Assembly: GCA_013813265.1 (NCBI GenBank)
Contig: JACCRY010000075.1
Coordinates: 150-64,149 of the forward strand
Source: Parachlamydiaceae bacterium
GTDB lineage: Bacteria; Chlamydiota; Chlamydiia; Chlamydiales; Parachlamydiaceae
Direction: 5' to 3'
DNA length: 64,000 nucleotides
Within the stretch, counting starts at the first letter, position 1. Every line of letters begins with the position of its first letter. Position numbers and translations under genes: made by a program. The notes under the pieces were generated by a model. That model did not search any database and was not told the origin of the DNA. It worked only from the letters and a program-made list of their open reading frames with translations. This document shows, piece by piece, positions 8,655-62,903 of this stretch.

Positions 8655-8814
8655 GTACACCATTTCATTTAAATTGTGGGGGTGGGCTGCGTCAAAGCCC
8701 CGGGGTTGTAACAAAAAAAATGGGTTCATATGCCCATATTAACCCATTTTTTTTGTTGCAACCGCGGGAGCTTTCACGCTAGCCCGACCCGACAATTTAA
8801 ATGAAATGGTGTAC
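8655..8814. repeat. 160-bp imperfect palindrome in the ald/clpC divergent intergenic region
   Basis: Left arm GTACACCATTTCATTTAAATTGT...GGTTGTAACAAAAAAAATGGGTT. The reverse complement of the right arm reads GTACACCATTTCATTTAAATTGT...GGTTGCAACAAAAAAAATGGGTT. Short central loop. Confidence 0.85.
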
Positions 8815-12527: not shown

Positions 12528-12830
12528 CATGCTATTCATGTAAACGTTTTTTTAGTCGCGTGCTTCTTTCGCCGACTACCGCGGCTCTGCGTTTGTATCT
12601 CCAAACCCCGCGTTCCGCTATCGCTACACACGGGGCTTTTATGTTAAATCGCTTCCGCGATCCAAGGCAGTTCATATTGTTTAAGGACTTGTTTTCGATC
12701 GCGGAAGCGATTAAACGTAATAGCCCCGCGTGCAGCGTTAGCGGAACGTGGGGTTAGGATAATTTGAATAACATAGCTGCGGTAGCAGTGAAAGAAGCAC
12801 GCGTTTCAAAACGTTTACATGAATAGCATG
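12528..12830. repeat. 303-bp GC-rich imperfect palindrome
   Basis: Termini CATGCTATTCATGTAAACGTTT / AAACGTTTACATGAATAGCATG. Arms of about 135 nt pair along their length (CGCGTGCTTCTTTC/GAAAGAAGCACGCG; AACCCCGCGTTCCGCTA/TAGCGGAACGTGGGGTT; GCTTCCGCGATC/GATCGCGGAAGC). Confidence 0.9.
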
Positions 12831-24679: not shown

Positions 24680-24897
24680 TGTCACAGGCCTTTAGCCTAA
24701 GGGTGGTTGTCTAGTTTACCTAGGGCGATACCATATAATAAGGAAGGCCTTCAGCCTGCTAAGGCACTTCATGACTTCATGTACATGTAAGTGTACGTCT
24801 TGGAAACATCCTCAGGCTGAAGGCCTTCCTTATTACAGCCTAGGGCATCGCCCTTGGTATAGCCAAAACATGATTTTCAGGCTGAAGGCCTGTCACA
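24680..24897. repeat. 218-bp imperfect palindrome containing four AGGCCTT(C/T)AGCCT units
   Basis: TGTCACAGGCC...AATAAGGAAGGCCTTCAGCCTG // CAGGCTGAAGGCCTTCCTTATT...GGCCTGTCACA. Inner 22-nt arms are perfect. CCTAGGGCGATACC pairs with the near-palindromic CCTAGGGCATCGCCC (similar on both strands). Confidence 0.85.
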
Positions 24898-31175: not shown

Positions 31176-31622
31176 CCCCAGTTCAACGCAAAGGCGCAAA
31201 GTCACAAAGACGAAGGAAAAAAACTCAGTAGAGACCAAATTAGTCATTGGTTACAAGCAGAGGTGAAATATTTATATTCTGTTTTCAATTTGCCTCCACT
31301 CTATGGATTATATAGAGAATATCAATTGAACTAATAGCAATATACTAGATTGATTTTTTTTAACACAGAGAAGCAGCAAAAGACGCAAAGGCACAAAGAA
31401 AACAGAAAGGATTAGATATACAAAAATATAGGCTATTTATAAAGGGGCCAATCCCTTTTTCAAAGATTTATCCAAGATTGATGTTGTTCTCTTATCCTTA
31501 CAAATTTCGTTCTCAAAAATCTTTGTGCCTTTGTGTCATTTGCTGCTTCTTAGTGTTAAAAAAAGATTCGTTATTTTCAGGCAAGGGTGCCATTGGACTG
31601 GCTCGCTTTGCGTTGAATTGGG
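31176..31622. repeat. Doubly nested inverted arrays of CGCAAAG/CACAAAG-type units
   Basis: Inner arms: 31354-31400 TTTTTTTTAACACAGAGAAGCAGCAAAAGACGCAAAGGCACAAAG, pairing with 31519-31564. Outer arms: 31176-31216 CCCCAGTTCAACGCAAAGGCGCAAAGTCACAAAGACGAAGG, pairing partly with 31604-31622 CGCTTTGCGTTGAATTGGG. Confidence 0.8.
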
Positions 31623-43525: not shown

Positions 43526-43697
43526 AATTCAATGCGTTACCACCTTTATTCAAACCAAAGGCACAAAGAAAAAAAGAAGACAAAAAGAATATAAGGAATG
43601 CAGGATTAAGAAAAAATGGCACTTTATTTGAACTCCTCTCTGATTTCCATTGCCCATGTCTTCTTTACACCTTCATGTCTTTGCGTTGAATCTGTGC
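43526..43697. repeat. Degenerate inverted array of the CACAAAG/CGCAAAG subfamily
   Basis: Left ATTCAATGCG...CAAAGGCACAAAGAAAAAAAGAAGACAAAAAG. Right CATGTCTTCTTTACACCTTCATGTCTTTGCGTTGAATC. Pairing is imperfect. Confidence 0.5.
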
Positions 43698-46769: not shown

Positions 46770-46792
46770 GCCTATAAAAATTGTAGATCGGC

Positions 46793-46952
46793 AAAAGTAG
46801 CTCGACATTCAATGTCGAGTTAAACGCTAACCTTGTTAGAACTATCAATTTTGACTCATGCCTACTGATCTCTCAAAAATGGCGTCTTTGCTAAAGGTCA
46901 ATAGCATTCGCTTAGTTGACTCCCAACTCGACATCGAATGTCGAGCTACTTT
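46793..46952. mobile_element. 160-bp MITE-like element with palindromic terminal inverted repeats
   Basis: Termini AAAAGTAGCTCGACATTCAATGTCGAG / CTCGACATCGAATGTCGAGCTACTTT. The left ~90 nt recur at 49851-49942. Confidence 0.7.
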
Positions 46953-47335
46953 ATCCCAGCTGAAATTTTTATGACCACTTTTCAAAACAGCCATGTGGGC
47001 TCCCGCATGACACCAAATATCTATCCCTCGGAGAATAAATGGATTGATCAGTCAATGCTAAGACGCGAACTTTAAACTCATTAAAAATTTTTACACTTGA
47101 AATAAAAAAACGTATAGCTTAAAATAGCAATTTATTATTAACAAACAAAAAATAAAACTAAAGTTTTTATGTTAGATTCAGAAATATCGTTCAGATAGAA
47201 AGAACCATTTGGCTTAATATAAGTGGCGATCAGCCTGTAGAGCTTAAACCCTCTAAATTTCCAACATTCATAGCTACTACAATACCTATAATTCATAAAC
47301 TAAGTAAAGTTAAAGGTTACAGTGCTTCTCTTAGT

Positions 47336-49554: not shown

Positions 49555-49671
49555 GGGATTTCGATTATTTAACCTCTAATTCTATCTTTGTGGTGAACTA
49601 GATTGTTTTTTTTAACGCAAAGAAAGGCAATTCCAATGACACGCTTATCGAAAAATAACATATTAATTTTT

Positions 49672-49769
49672 GAAACACAGAGGCACGGAGGACACAGAGA
49701 AAACAAAAGAGAATTTGAATTTTTCCATACCTCTGCGCCTCTCTCTGTGTTCTCTGTGCCTCTGTGTTT
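49672..49769. repeat. Gene-less doublet of CACAGAG-type arms (empty counterpart of the GxxExxY unit)
   Basis: Left arm GAAACACAGAGGCACGGAGGACACAGAGA. The reverse complement of the right arm reads AAACACAGAGGCACAGAGAACACAGAGAGAGGCGCAGAGG. 29-nt spacer. Confidence 0.85.
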
Positions 49770-49850
49770 AAAACTAATTAGTACAAAAACATGTTATTTA
49801 GAAGAAACAGCAAAAGGTGCAAAAGCCGCAAAGATAAATGTAACTCAGCC

Positions 49851-49942
49851 AAAAGTAGCTCGACATTGAATGTCGAACTAGGAGTTAACCTAGTAAGAAT
49901 TATCTATTTTGACTAATCCCTACTCAACTTCTCAATGTCGAG
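49851..49942. mobile_element. Second, right-truncated copy of the 46793 MITE-like element
   Basis: AAAAGTAGCTCGACATTGAATGTCGAA...TTAACCTAGTAAGAATTATCTATTTTGACTAATCCCTACT...CAATGTCGAGG. Abuts the dnaJ stop. Confidence 0.65.
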
Positions 49943-49953
49943 GTACAGGTCGC

Positions 49954-51337: not shown

Positions 51338-51615
51338 TGAAATTTCTTCCTGGTTGAGTGATACATTTGATTTCCGCTATCCTCAGATGGATGGCGGATA
51401 TGCCTTACTTTCTTGTTAGCAGTATAGCAACTCTGTGCTTTATAATCAATCCCCTATTATCTCGACTTTATCATTTTTTTACCGGCATCTTACAGAAATC
51501 GCTCCCTGGACATAAATCTGCCTTAAGGATCACCTGCAATTTGCCCGCAGAAAAATCATAAAGTCGAGATTGCAAAAAGGTGGAAAAAAAAAGGTGTTTA
51601 CTATAAAAATGCAAC

Positions 51616-56197: not shown

Positions 56198-56474
56198 ACG
56201 CTTAAAGGAGCGCACGTTAACCATCTGTAACTGGAAATTTTGATGCCGAGATGATTAAAGAAATGATTTACTGCAGAGTCGCAGAGAACGCAGAGGCAAC
56301 GCAGAGATTTCATTCAAAAGTAGCCAAGGAGGCAGAAGCTCTACTTCTTTTATATTAAATTAATGTGCCTCGGCGCTTCCTCTACGTTCTCTGGGGCTCT
56401 GCGGTAAATCTTTTCCTCAACCGCATCGGAATGCCCAGTTACGCGAACCCTTAACGCTCGCTACTCTTAGCGTC
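56198..56474. repeat. 277-bp imperfect palindrome with CGCAGAG-type arrays at its core
   Basis: Core arms 56271-56307 CTGCAGAGTCGCAGAGAACGCAGAGGCAACGCAGAGA and 56365-56404. The outer arms pair out to GACGCT / AGCGTC and include CTGTAACTGGA / CCCAGTTACG. Confidence 0.85.
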
Positions 56475-60393: not shown

Positions 60394-60559
60394 ATCGCTC
60401 CTCTATTTTATTCATTATATCTTGTAATCCAAAAAGCCCGGATCGTAACCGATTCTTTTTTGTTATACAACATTGGAGAAATTCATACGCATAAATGCCG
60501 AATTTCTTGCATCTCAATTAGGTCTGCAGTATCTTAGTAACTCAAAATAGAGAGAGATA

Positions 60560-61033
60560 GAAACACAGAGGCACAGAGGACACAGAGAGAGCAACATGTG
60601 GAGATACGAATTAACACAATCAATAATAGGAGCCGCAATTGAAGTTCATCGATGTTTAGGTCCAGGCTTGCTTGAATCTGCATATCGAACATGCTTGGCA
60701 TATGAATTGAAAAAACGGGGTTTTAATGTTGTTGAAGAAAAGCCCATCCCTGTCTTTTATGATAACATGCAAATGGAATGCGGTTTTCGAGCTGACTTGT
60801 TAATTAATGATTTGATAATTGTAGAATTAAAAGCCAAAACCACAATACATCCTGTTGATAAAGCTCAAACACTTTCACATTTACGTCTAATGAACCTACA
60901 AGTTGGACTACTTATAAACTTCCACAACGAAAAACTCACTGATGGTATACACAGGATCATTAATGGATATTAAATCCAAGTTAACTTCCTCTCTCTTCCT
61001 CCGTTCTCTGTGCCCTCTGTGCCTCTGTGTTTC
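60560..61033. mobile_element. GxxExxY gene unit bracketed by inverted CACAGAG-type octamer arrays (candidate REPtron-like element)
   Basis: The left arm 60560-60592 ends 3 nt before the ATG. The right arm 60988-61033 begins 14 nt after the stop. The first 20 nt of both arms, read inward, are identical (GAAACACAGAGGCACAGAGG). Confidence 0.45.
60596..60973 (+). CDS. GxxExxY protein (PD-(D/E)XK nuclease-fold family)
   Basis: 125 aa. IIGAAIEVHRCLGPGLLESAY contains the eponymous G-LL-E-SA-Y. FRADLLINDLIIVELK is a D...E.K-like nuclease motif. Confidence 0.85.
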   Translation: MWRYELTQSIIGAAIEVHRCLGPGLLESAYRTCLAYELKKRGFNVVEEKPIPVFYDNMQMECGFRADLLINDLIIVELKAKTTIHPVDKAQTLSHLRLMNLQVGLLINFHNEKLTDGIHRIINGY

Positions 61034-61054: not shown

Positions 61055-62743
61055 ATGACACGTATTTTGTTAATCGGACTCTTAATGCTACTTGTCTTTC
61101 CACTGCTAGCAGCAGCAGCTAGTCCGACGCTTTCATGTCCAAAACACGCCCTCTATCTTGTTCATAAGGGCCAAATCGACTCAGCATTAGATCTCTACCA
61201 AACTCATTTCAAAACTTGCCAAACGCACGACACCGAATTTTTACAACAACTGGGCCTTAGCTTGCTTGAACAAGGAGCCCACAGCCGAGATCCAGAAACC
61301 CAACTGATGGCCCTTTTTGGCGCTGGCCTAGCAACGAATGAACGGGTGCTTCCAATTTTAATTCGTGCTATAAATTCTCCATTGCCTCAATTGCAACTTA
61401 TCGCTCTTAACCTCCTTGCTCACTGCCAACATGACGATGCCAATAAAGCTATTTTCCAGGGGTTACGGTCCAACTCTCTACTTGTGCGACTTGAGGCCCT
61501 CCACCAAATCGCCTTAAGAAAAGACTGCAAAGCTTCAAACCACATCGAATCGTTAATGGGAAAAGTTAATCCTGAACTCTTGCCTTTATTCCCTCAGCTC
61601 TTTGCTCTTGTTGATGACAATGAATCCGTAAAAATGCTTAGAAAACTTCTAAGTCATACACAAGAAGCCGTGCGCATCGAAACAGTCATAAGTTGTGCCC
61701 GAAGTGGCAGAGACGACCTGCTGCCAAAAATTAAAGTTTTAGCTGCTCATGGATCTTTTGCCCAAAAGGAAGCCTGCGCTTTGGCACTTGGAGCACTCCG
61801 TGATGATTCTTCTCTTCCTTTTCTTTTAAAGCTATCCCGTACAACCACAATTTCTACAGTTAAATTAGCAGCTTGTAAATCTCTTTATATACTGGGCCAT
61901 TTAGAAGCGCTAAAAACGATACAAACACTTGCAGCTCAAGGAGATCTATTTGGGATTGCCATGCTTGGAGACTTGCCAGAGAATAAAGAAATTCTTGCAA
62001 AACTTTTAACATCTCCAGATTTTTCGATCAGACTCAACGCTTCTATTGCTCTATTAAATCAACAAGACGTAAGATGTTTAACGTTGCTTCCTGAAATTTT
62101 AGTGAAAGACTCTCGGGACCTTGCTTTTACTAAAACACTCTCTCAGGGCAAAGGACTGATCTGCTGGAAACCTGTATTTTCCGCCAGGCAGCAATTTGTA
62201 GATTCACCAACGGATTTAGAACTTTCTTTGAATTTTCGAGAATCGTTGCTAATCGCCGCTGCAGATCTTCCTGAAGAGGATTTCCTGTTTCTGATTAAGC
62301 TTATCTTTGATAAGCAACAAAATGACCTTGTCCCGACAGCAATTGCCTTATTAGAAAGTATTGAAACTCCTAAGGCGATAGATCTTCTCAGGATATACCG
62401 ACAACGCCCAGGAGCCCCTTTAATTCGCAATTATTGCAATCTGGCGCTTTATAGACTTGGAGATGAAGGACCTTACAGTGAAAGCCTTTCAGCCTGGCTT
62501 GAACAACAAATAGCTGTGGGCCTCATTCAATTGAGGCCTCTTGTCCCCTGGGAACTGAATGATGACCAGATGGCTCATCAGATCACTCCGCATGAGACAT
62601 CACGGCTACTAGTTGAGACATTTGAAGCACTGACAACAAAACAAGATAAGCACGGCATCAATTGCCTTCTTGAAGCAATAAAAAATGGAAACTCGAAGAA
62701 CAAATATGCTTTGGCAGGCCTCCTCATTCGTGCAACACTTTAA
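61055..62743 (+). CDS. Secreted HEAT/ARM-like repeat protein
   Basis: Signal peptide MTRILLIGLLMLLVFPLLAAAASP from ATG 61055 (AAGGAAG RBS). Repeated helical units follow (..VRLEALHQIA.., ..VRIETVISCA.., ..IRLNASIALL..). The track start 61010 lies inside the repeat arm. Confidence 0.55.
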   Translation: MTRILLIGLLMLLVFPLLAAAASPTLSCPKHALYLVHKGQIDSALDLYQTHFKTCQTHDTEFLQQLGLSLLEQGAHSRDPETQLMALFGAGLATNERVLPILIRAINSPLPQLQLIALNLLAHCQHDDANKAIFQGLRSNSLLVRLEALHQIALRKDCKASNHIESLMGKVNPELLPLFPQLFALVDDNESVKMLRKLLSHTQEAVRIETVISCARSGRDDLLPKIKVLAAHGSFAQKEACALALGALRDDSSLPFLLKLSRTTTISTVKLAACKSLYILGHLEALKTIQTLAAQGDLFGIAMLGDLPENKEILAKLLTSPDFSIRLNASIALLNQQDVRCLTLLPEILVKDSRDLAFTKTLSQGKGLICWKPVFSARQQFVDSPTDLELSLNFRESLLIAAADLPEEDFLFLIKLIFDKQQNDLVPTAIALLESIETPKAIDLLRIYRQRPGAPLIRNYCNLALYRLGDEGPYSESLSAWLEQQIAVGLIQLRPLVPWELNDDQMAHQITPHETSRLLVETFEALTTKQDKHGINCLLEAIKNGNSKNKYALAGLLIRATL

Positions 62744-62773
62744 ATTATTGAGATGCGGAGTAAGGGAAATTAA

Positions 62774-62870
62774 CCGCAGAGCTCCAGAGAACGCAGAGGA
62801 AGCGCAGAGATTTTTTTGTCTTTACAAAATTAGTTTGCAGTTCCTCTGCGCTTGCTCTGCGGCTCTGCGG
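62774..62870. repeat. Gene-less doublet of CGCAGAG-type arms
   Basis: Left CCGCAGAGCTCCAGAGAACGCAGAGGAAGCGCAGAGA. Right CCTCTGCGCTTGCTCTGCGGCTCTGCGG. 32-nt spacer. Confidence 0.85.
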
Positions 62871-62903
62871 TTTACTATTTCGTCCCTGCCCTTAATCTTG
62901 ATT

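Follow-up and report, generated by a model that had tools for sequence, protein, structure and literature searches.

The window analysed here is a 64,000-nt stretch of DNA from the metagenome-assembled genome of a Parachlamydiaceae bacterium (contig JACCRY010000075.1; G+C content 39.8%). At positions 60560-61033 it holds a small gene of the GxxExxY family enclosed between two inverted arms that are built from short CACAGAG-type units. The association of this gene family with such unit arrays is real and general, and it is apparently undescribed. Most likely, 60560-61033 is a copy, bearing an open reading frame (ORF), of a small selfish hairpin element that belongs to a large family. The large and uncharacterised GxxExxY family thereby gains its first concrete, bench-testable nucleic-acid partner, as almost all members examined are physically linked to one specific kind of repeat that is itself a high-copy dispersed hairpin. 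The finding also bears on the origin and possible mobility of ORF-bearing intervening sequences (IVSs) of rRNA, a question that dates from the early 1990s (PMC4990558).

A GxxExxY gene enclosed by inverted unit arrays

The element in the window has a total length of 474 bp and is located between fumC and a gene encoding a HEAT-repeat protein (61055-62743). Its arms (60560-60588 and 61005-61033) comprise 29 nt each and are 97% complementary; an inner extension of the left arm (60584-60594) pairs with 60986-60996, more weakly than the outer 29-nt stem. Each arm consists of three or four units of the type C-R-C-R-R-A-G and an outer GAAAC tag. A preliminary description of this DNA, made from the sequence alone, had placed the arms 3 nt before the start codon and 14 nt after the stop codon of the gene. 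We measured 1-2 nt between the end of the left arm and the ATG (60596) and 12 nt between the end of the stop codon (60973) and the right arm, a trivial difference. The outer 20 nt, described earlier as identical, are indeed GAAACACAGAGGCACAGAGG in both arms. The observation of an arm-enclosed GxxExxY gene is real and was confirmed almost to the base. When the whole element was folded as RNA, both arms paired with each other (z -5.8). No promoter-like site was found upstream of the ORF inside the element, and an Rfam scan of the 64-kb window revealed neither rRNA nor any other Rfam family.

Judged by full-length profile matches above the curated cut-offs, the ORF encodes a member of the GxxExxY family: residues 5-122 match both PF13366 PDDEXK_3 (E 3.6e-39, 134.2 bits, cut-off 22) and TIGR04256 GxxExxY (E 1.3e-41, 141.6 bits, cut-off 35). 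The motif G24-L-L-E27-S-A-Y30 as well as D67 and E77-L-K79 are invariant in 48 homologues. The AlphaFold (AF2) model displays an alpha-beta nuclease core with a predicted local distance difference test (pLDDT) value of 94.4. Its closest folds in the PDB are lambda exonuclease, LHK-Exo, Cas4 (SSO0001) and Bax1; these matches are weak (E ~3e-3, template modelling (TM) score 0.46-0.56), and all of them are PD-(D/E)XK nucleases. A sequence search of the PDB with the protein gave no match, and neither PADLOC (defence systems) nor PHROGs (phage families) contained a match to GxxExxY. The gene was absent from the phage genomes scanned and present in 8 of 72,556 plasmid records, mostly megaplasmids.

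The family is large, with 19,231 cluster representatives (50% identity) at E <=1e-3 and 5,631 at E <=1e-10. Relatives from Planctomycetota are 70-80% identical to the chlamydial protein. Across 561 pairs, the median non-synonymous difference (pN) was 0.12 while the synonymous difference (pS) was saturated at 0.83; where dS was finite, dN/dS was ~0.05. According to these ratios, the GxxExxY protein is under strong purifying selection, and the high identity between Planctomycetota and Chlamydiae reflects constraint and not recent transfer, because pN is low and pS saturated. A literature search yielded no functional study of GxxExxY (PF13366/TIGR04256) and no description of the gene-array association.

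About 20 of the best 150 family representatives (including P0353-P0356, P0359 and P0360) have a length of 250-295 aa and two GxxExxY domains. These could be true tandem-domain proteins or result from read-through of tandem gene copies across a hairpin.

GxxExxY genes are paired with unit arrays across phyla

Scanning one genome per species, we obtained 80 loci with relatives at 43-79% identity. Most belong to Planctomycetota; the others come from a second Chlamydiae genome, Bacteroidota, Acidobacteriota, Kiritimatiellales, Verrucomicrobiales, Anaerolineae and further taxa. Arrays within 100 nt were then recorded for 73 GxxExxY genes and for 220 control ORFs of the same loci. Arrays on both sides were found at 56 of the 73 genes compared to 2 of the 220 control ORFs (Fisher p ~1e-42), and arrays on at least one side at 70 genes compared to 15 control ORFs (Fisher p ~1e-48). 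Array density was 3.5/kb near GxxExxY genes and 0.27/kb elsewhere in the loci, and arrays of at least three units numbered 311 in the surveyed loci versus 6 in shuffled sequence. The pairing is specific and near-universal across the phyla examined, in agreement with the earlier proposal that the association is widespread. We rejected an assembly artefact of metagenome bins as its source since the same arms occur in finished genomes of cultured bacteria, namely Bernardetia sp., Bacteroides finegoldii (in the order radA, arm, GxxExxY gene, arm, FAD-protein gene) and Sphingomonas parapaucimobilis, where the gene lies between fabD and fabG.

The arms have also left a mark on protein databases. Homologues starting with M[IV]ETQRHRGHRE show the exact in-frame translation of the left arm of the window element, and further homologues start with HRRGAEDAEG, HHRGTEGTEDTE or TEGTEDTE. 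The odd N-terminal extensions of GxxExxY entries, noted previously, are therefore real. As the extensions (ETQRHRGHRE, TEGTEDTE, RRGAEDAEG) are translated arms, they should be read in annotation as start-codon miscalls.

In Prevotella nigrescens, direct repeats of another element, ~60 nt long (CTCGGCG.AGCCGACTG...ACAAATC..ACAAATAGAA), flank a divergent GxxExxY gene (L220, gene 374-799, 37% identity) that has no inverted unit arrays. The most distant branches thus include exceptions to the pairing with octamer arrays. Two further loci (L056 and L057) are 100% identical over 8,250 bp, yet are found in metagenome-assembled genomes of different orders from one study (Pirellulaceae KatS3mg111 and Gemmatales KatS3mg105), which is probably due to a binning duplication rather than to transfer.

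The module has defined ends and constrained arms

Genes and arrays are arranged in two layouts. In layout A, the type found in the window, a forward arm is followed by 8-45 nt, the gene, 3-45 nt and a reverse arm, placing the gene in the loop of one hairpin (~23 cases, including Bacteroidota examples). Layout B (~41 cases, dominant in Pirellulaceae) has a complete short hairpin on each side of the gene, both in the same orientation. The first hairpin, with three units, a loop of ~18 nt and three units, is followed by ~30 nt with a Shine-Dalgarno sequence, the gene, ~20 nt and the second hairpin. The consensus of the short hairpins is TTGAAAC-RCAGAGG-CRCRGAGRN-CRCAGAG, loop, and the complement ending in GTTTCAAAA. 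C.C.GAG and GAAAC are near-invariant, and mismatches gather at the R positions and in the spacers between units. When nine layout-B copies from different contexts were aligned, conservation extended from the outer GAAAC of the first hairpin to the GTTTCAAAA of the second and stopped there, indicating that the module has defined ends with outer terminal inverted repeats as in layout A.

The 20-nt outer arm of the window was present with <=1 mismatch beside 29 of 45 CAC-type homologues, whereas control segments had 7-10 mismatches. By this comparison, the outer 20 nt are almost invariant even though synonymous sites of the gene are saturated, and the arms are constrained in sequence and not in pairing alone, which fits recognition of the units by a sequence-specific factor. 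The unit type (CAC or CGC) and the layout co-segregate with the clade of the protein. Among 72 distinct short hairpins, stem mismatches of the G:U type on the sense strand of the gene (121) were about balanced by those on the antisense strand (A:C; 102; p = 0.23). This balance gives no support for a selected RNA stem and has too little power to exclude one.

The hairpins are hot spots of rearrangement, with tandem gene-hairpin-gene-hairpin arrays (L023, L004) and truncated gene copies beside full ones. Other tandem structures were seen at single loci: an 18-copy GAAACGCA microsatellite directly after a GxxExxY gene (L013, 4400-4560), tandem repeats of a hairpin with an identical spacer of ~90 nt (L019, 4400-5450), repeats of the same make-up with a period of ~142 nt (L100, 3630-4150; 4-7 copies in L019 and L100), and tandem repeats of a hairpin with an identical spacer in L112. 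A CRISPR-like array was rejected as an explanation, given the inverted orientation of the repeats and the fact that the tandem 'spacers' are copies identical to one another. Intrinsic terminators were likewise rejected, as the stems end in GTTTCAAAA without a T run and hairpins are found whether the neighbouring genes are convergent, divergent or tandem.

Shared modules and filled and empty sites

A module of ~500-650 bp with 78-90% nucleotide identity is common to loci with otherwise unrelated flanks. Such module pairs occur within one genome (L022/L032 and L054/L063), and two chlamydial copies, that of the window and L001, are found in different contexts.

Comparison of orthologous sites revealed both filled and empty states. 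The HEAT-repeat gene next to the window element has relatives at 81-82% protein identity in two other loci (L201 and L202), which share its conserved leader block. In these relatives, the leader block is separated from the HEAT start codon by ~25-35 nt with nothing between, while the window has the 474-bp element at this position. As the leader block directly precedes the HEAT start in L201 and L202, it marks the orthologous empty site. L202 has kept a gene-less hairpin of the window (62772-62872), with unit substitutions and an additional unit; L201 lacks this hairpin and has 26 nt between the two genes. The hairpin element is a dispersed, insertable unit. No empty site was detected among the syntenic sets L017/L034/L052, L028/L040, L087/L137 and L149/L158, all of which retain the element.

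Gene-less copies and other repeats in the window

The window also harbours copies of the arms without any gene (Table 1). The gene-less copy previously placed at 49672-49769 extends slightly further at both ends, and all five additional variant sites (CGCAGAG, CACAAAG) claimed earlier were located. The variants and the gene-less copy are all intergenic, and the adjacent gene pairs are convergent, divergent or tandem alike. CACAGAGG occurs seven times in the window versus 0.95 times expected, a number reached in none of 100 shuffles; arrays of at least three units occur ten times compared to a mean of 0.04 in 50 shuffles. Folded as single-strand DNA, the window hairpins gave z-scores of -5.7 to -8.9. 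On the basis of the shuffles and the fold z-scores, an origin of the arrays by chance was excluded. A tblastn search for gene remnants returned a single GxxExxY match in the window, and the loops of the gene-less copies were dissimilar to the gene ends.

Table 1. Features of the ORF-bearing element, its surroundings and related arrays in the window.
Feature	Position	Strand	Description
Conserved leader block of the HEAT gene	60498..60527	+	CCGAATTTCTTGCATCTCAATTAGGTCTGC; the relatives L201/L202 share CCGAATT[T/C]CTTGCATCTCAATTAGGTCTGC
Left terminal inverted repeat	60560..60594	+	GAAAC outer tag, 3 CACAGAG-type units (60564-60587), AGAGAGAGCAA inner extension abutting the start codon
GxxExxY protein gene	60596..60973	+	125 aa; predicted minimal PD-(D/E)XK nuclease
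Right terminal inverted repeat	60986..61033	+	4 CTCTGTG-type units with GTTTC at the end; 21 nt before the HEAT ATG at 61055
ORF-less hairpin, CACAGAG arms	49669..49773	.	Arms 49669-49700 / 49742-49773, 32 nt, 91%; 41-nt loop; between convergent genes; DNA fold -29.5 kcal/mol, z -7.9
ORF-less hairpin, CGCAGAG variant	62772..62872	.	Arms 62772-62794 / 62850-62872; just past the HEAT gene stop; DNA fold z -8.9
ORF-less hairpin, CGCAGAG variant	56272..56403	.	Arms 56272-56306 / 56369-56403; 4 units per arm; DNA fold z -6.6
ORF-less hairpin, CACAAAG/CGCAAAG variant	31355..31564	.	Arms 31355-31399 / 31520-31564, 45 nt, 91% complementary; 120-nt loop
Lone 3-unit array (CGCAAAG, CGCAAAG, CACAAAG)	31187..31209	+	Abuts the start of the ribosomal protein L13 gene
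Degenerate hairpin, CACAAAG/CGCAAAG variant	43548..43691	.	Arms 43548-43582 / 43657-43691, 35 nt, 74% complementary

A second, unrelated repeat family in the window consists of GTAG-tagged palindromes AAAGTAGCTCGACATTCAATGTCGAG, arranged as two inverted pairs at 46774-46972 and 49855-49946; GTAGCTCGACAT, a sequence of this family, has four matches versus 0.13 expected. The palindromes look like classical repetitive extragenic palindromes (REPs) of the GTAG type or their hairpin-forming doublets (REPINs), and the genome may therefore encode a true REP-associated tyrosine transposase (RAYT) elsewhere. The window is unusually rich in hairpin-forming repeats in general. Long intergenic inverted repeats without octamer units are present at 8655-8814 (nested 34-nt pairs), 12528-12830 (66-nt arms within a perfect 23-nt outer pair), 24736-24835 (a perfect 23-nt pair) and 51459-51570.

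Arms outnumber genes and enclose two gene families

Searching metagenome contigs with the arm pattern GAAACRCAGAGRCRCRGAG, we recovered at least 120 loci spanning 791 kb. Among the matches listed, a GxxExxY gene was present in 4 of 120 arm-bearing loci, each time at 10-15 nt from an arm, and most arms belonged to short gene-less hairpins; by this ratio, hairpins far outnumber genes. When ORFs of 70-400 aa with an array on each side were clustered over ~1.4 Mb of loci, GxxExxY was the sole recurrent family. The remaining array-bounded ORFs were translated repeats or ordinary neighbour genes.

A looser screen identified a gene for a '23S rRNA intervening sequence protein' (PF05635, a four-helix bundle) between inverted arrays (L148, 3675-3929). 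A relative of this protein (L204) is encoded by a gene with GCACAGGG and GCACGGAC units upstream and their complements downstream. The PF05635 gene of L207 is accompanied by ACGCACGG units and that of L211 by GCACGGAG units, the unit class of the GxxExxY arms; the arrays flanking PF05635 genes include CACGGAG units identical to those of GxxExxY arms. The similar arrays of these relatives indicate that a second small-protein family travels in the same kind of carrier.

One PF05635 clade (L148 and L204-L214, the latter with the gene at 801-1163 or 801-1109) has inverted arrays on both sides and lies on the opposite strand between dnaE2, encoding an error-prone Pol III alpha subunit, and an imuB-like IMS_C gene. 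The same site recurs in many independent metagenome contigs, indicating a conserved insertion in a mutasome cassette. In another locus (L215, ~745-800), eight tandem GGTGTCR heptamers run up to the ATG of a distant PF05635/bAvd-type gene that is located between a gene for an SMC-like ATPase and one for an MmeI-type methyltransferase; no downstream inverted partner is visible. The unit differs from the octamers, and the arrangement is possibly different, too.

Origin and spread of the hairpin elements

We consider it somewhat less than an even bet, with a probability of roughly 0.47, that the hairpins are a selfish element family whose ORF-bearing members encode a nuclease that recognises their own arms. 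The elements end in inverted repeats of ~28-35 bp made of 3-4 tandem C-R-C-R-R-A-G units, with GAAAC as the left cap and GTTTC as the right one. Gene-less intergenic hairpins of 70-135 bp make up most copies, a few per cent enclose or directly flank the 125-aa GxxExxY gene, and in the lineage of the window one copy is present in the 5' leader of the HEAT-repeat gene. We infer that the nuclease, probably a symmetric oligomer, would recognise the unit arrays in DNA, whether these are present as inverted sites in a duplex or extruded as a cruciform, and would cut there. Hairpins could then be duplicated, moved or converted through break repair and recombination among the dispersed copies, taking the gene with them. 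Propagation of this kind would resemble homing or the relationship between REPINs and RAYTs.

Several points weigh against this reading. A lone 125-aa PD-(D/E)XK nuclease is not known to act as a transposase and is unable to carry out strand transfer on its own. No target-site duplication was seen at the element ends, the relatives with empty sites (81-82% protein identity) being too diverged for a base-exact junction. Conserved synteny among related species (L018/L024/L044 and L028/L040) together with the saturated synonymous sites speaks for long vertical residence and not for frequent movement. Shared ancestry confounds the co-segregation of unit type and protein clade. The unit type of distant hairpins was uncorrelated with that of the local gene (odds ratio 1.04), a comparison that is uninformative because many distant two-unit arrays are near noise (68 shuffled versus 110 observed). 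The four-helix-bundle genes of PF05635 have the same kind of arms without having the nuclease motif, and the ORF may thus be a passenger. Finally, the surveyed loci are biased to close relatives of the query, mostly Planctomycetota. A wider reading, possible although doubtful, would join the octamer hairpins and their two alternative ORFs, GxxExxY and the four-helix-bundle IVS protein (IVP), into one widespread undescribed class of mobile element. Here, the nuclease would read the 7-8-nt units in hairpin or cruciform DNA, spread would proceed by break-induced copying, and rRNA IVSs would be members that had landed in rRNA. If true, this would amount to a mechanism of mobility without a transposase.

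Alternatively, an unlinked agent might make or move the hairpins, be it a host enzyme, a different element, or replication and recombination, and GxxExxY, like IVP, would ride along in them as a small selfish or accessory ORF. In this model, which we regard as rather unlikely, the arms would act mainly in RNA, forming a long stem trimmed by RNase III that makes insertion into a transcribed leader harmless and releases the ORF mRNA, as in the ORF-bearing IVSs of 23S rRNA. The 474-bp element with its 29-bp stem and single ORF does come close to the Coxiella IVS of 428-444 nt with a 28-bp stem (PMC4990558), and IVP genes possess the same kind of inverted unit arrays. In addition, the window element lies in the sense direction after the HEAT leader block and before the HEAT ATG, lacks a promoter-like site ahead of its ORF and closes its arms in the RNA fold, and the elements of B. 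finegoldii and Sphingomonas lie between same-strand genes (radA/FAD protein and fabD/fabG, respectively). Against this stands the missing excess of G:U-compatible over A:C mismatches on the sense strand, while the conservation of arm sequence (invariant C.C.GAG, GAAAC) goes far beyond the needs of an RNase III substrate. Hairpins are situated between convergent, divergent and tandem genes alike, and only two cargo families were seen, GxxExxY being the sole recurrent tight cargo in 1.4 Mb.

Improbable in our view is a domesticated host system, in which the hairpins would serve the host, for example as protein-binding sites for chromosome organisation or as insulators or attenuators of transcription, and GxxExxY, passed on vertically, would bind or process them as a host protein, much as some RAYTs are thought to be domesticated. 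The very strong purifying selection, the ancient divergence implied by saturated synonymous sites and the synteny of gene and arms across related species would agree with such a role. So would the lack of observed target-site duplications, the near-absence from plasmids and absence from phages, and the lack of matches to defence systems or phage families. However, the element and one hairpin are missing at orthologous sites in close relatives, genomes contain multiple paralogous, truncated and tandem copies, the same module occurs in unrelated contexts, and the distribution is patchy across phyla, with 75-80% protein identity between Chlamydiota and Planctomycetota. The hairpin could also be an attC-like site for an unlinked site-specific recombinase, with the gene and one hairpin moving as a circular cassette. 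The planctomycete hairpin-gene-hairpin arrangement with flanking hairpins in direct orientation and the tandem gene-hairpin-gene-hairpin arrays (L023, L004) are reminiscent of this. Nevertheless, we judge it very improbable: neither an integrase nor a recombinase was seen beside the arrays of the examined loci, the cargo belongs essentially to one family and not to diverse cassettes, the hairpins are dispersed singly among housekeeping genes, and the attC core, GTTRRRY, does not agree with the GAAAC/GTTTC ends.

Comparison with known systems

The preliminary description had likened the locus to REPs with their RAYT transposase or to ORF-carrying rRNA IVS hairpins. Both are apt analogies with regard to the flanking repeats, the copy excess and the IVS-like shape; the element is a member of neither, since its nuclease is not of the HUH/Y1 type, its arms are GAAAC-tagged unit arrays, and it is not located in 23S rRNA. 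As in REP/REPIN-RAYT systems, short hairpin repeats are scattered over intergenic DNA in numbers far above that of the gene, and repeats directly flank the gene in inverted orientation, the planctomycete hairpin-gene-hairpin arrangement being similar to a RAYT between REPINs. Repeat variants go with protein clades in both, and several families coexist in one genome. In contrast to RAYTs, GxxExxY is a 125-aa PD-(D/E)XK protein with family matches to PDDEXK_3/GxxExxY only and not to HUH/Y1 (IS200/IS605-like) proteins. REPs are imperfect palindromes of 20-40 bp with a GTAG or CGTC tag (PMC3733652), whereas the GxxExxY arms are composed of 3-4 units of 7-8 nt with a GAAAC tag. Moreover, the GxxExxY gene is often present in multiple copies, including truncated and tandem ones, and the genuine GTAG-tagged REP-like palindromes of the window are separate from the unit arrays.

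The ORF-bearing IVSs in 23S rRNA of Coxiella and Leptospira resemble the window element in size (~430-480 bp), in terminal inverted repeats of ~28-29 bp and in the single ORF of ~120 aa; RNase III cleaves the Coxiella IVS (PMC4990558). Outside rRNA, PF05635 genes are accompanied by inverted unit arrays of the same kind, the distribution is sporadic with a selfish look, and the layout of the window, with the gene in one hairpin, mirrors that of an IVS. However, the GxxExxY element resides in intergenic or leader DNA and not in helix 9, 25 or 45 of 23S rRNA, and its cargo is a PF13366 nuclease instead of the S23p/four-helix bundle PF05635. Gene-less hairpins are abundant here, and the mismatch pattern displays no RNA-strand signal.

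Insertion sequences and their miniature inverted-repeat transposable elements (MITEs) likewise combine terminal inverted repeats around one ORF with many short ORF-less copies that have the same ends, vary in presence between related genomes and occur in unrelated contexts. What sets the GxxExxY element apart is that it encodes none of the recognised transposase folds (DDE, HUH, serine or tyrosine) and that no target-site duplication was detected. A complete hairpin forms each end of the module in its common layout, and since the gene-less hairpins have conserved loops of their own, they do not represent the ORF-bearing form with a simple internal deletion.

Free-standing genes for PD-(D/E)XK homing endonucleases exist, for example that of I-Ssp6803I. 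Unlike these, the GxxExxY element has no intron or intein, and its putative target is a high-copy dispersed repeat and not a unique conserved gene. The likeness would lie in a small selfish nuclease gene embedded in a sequence that its product may recognise. By this analogy, symmetric inverted sites would suit a homo-oligomer, and spread by break repair would require no transposase.

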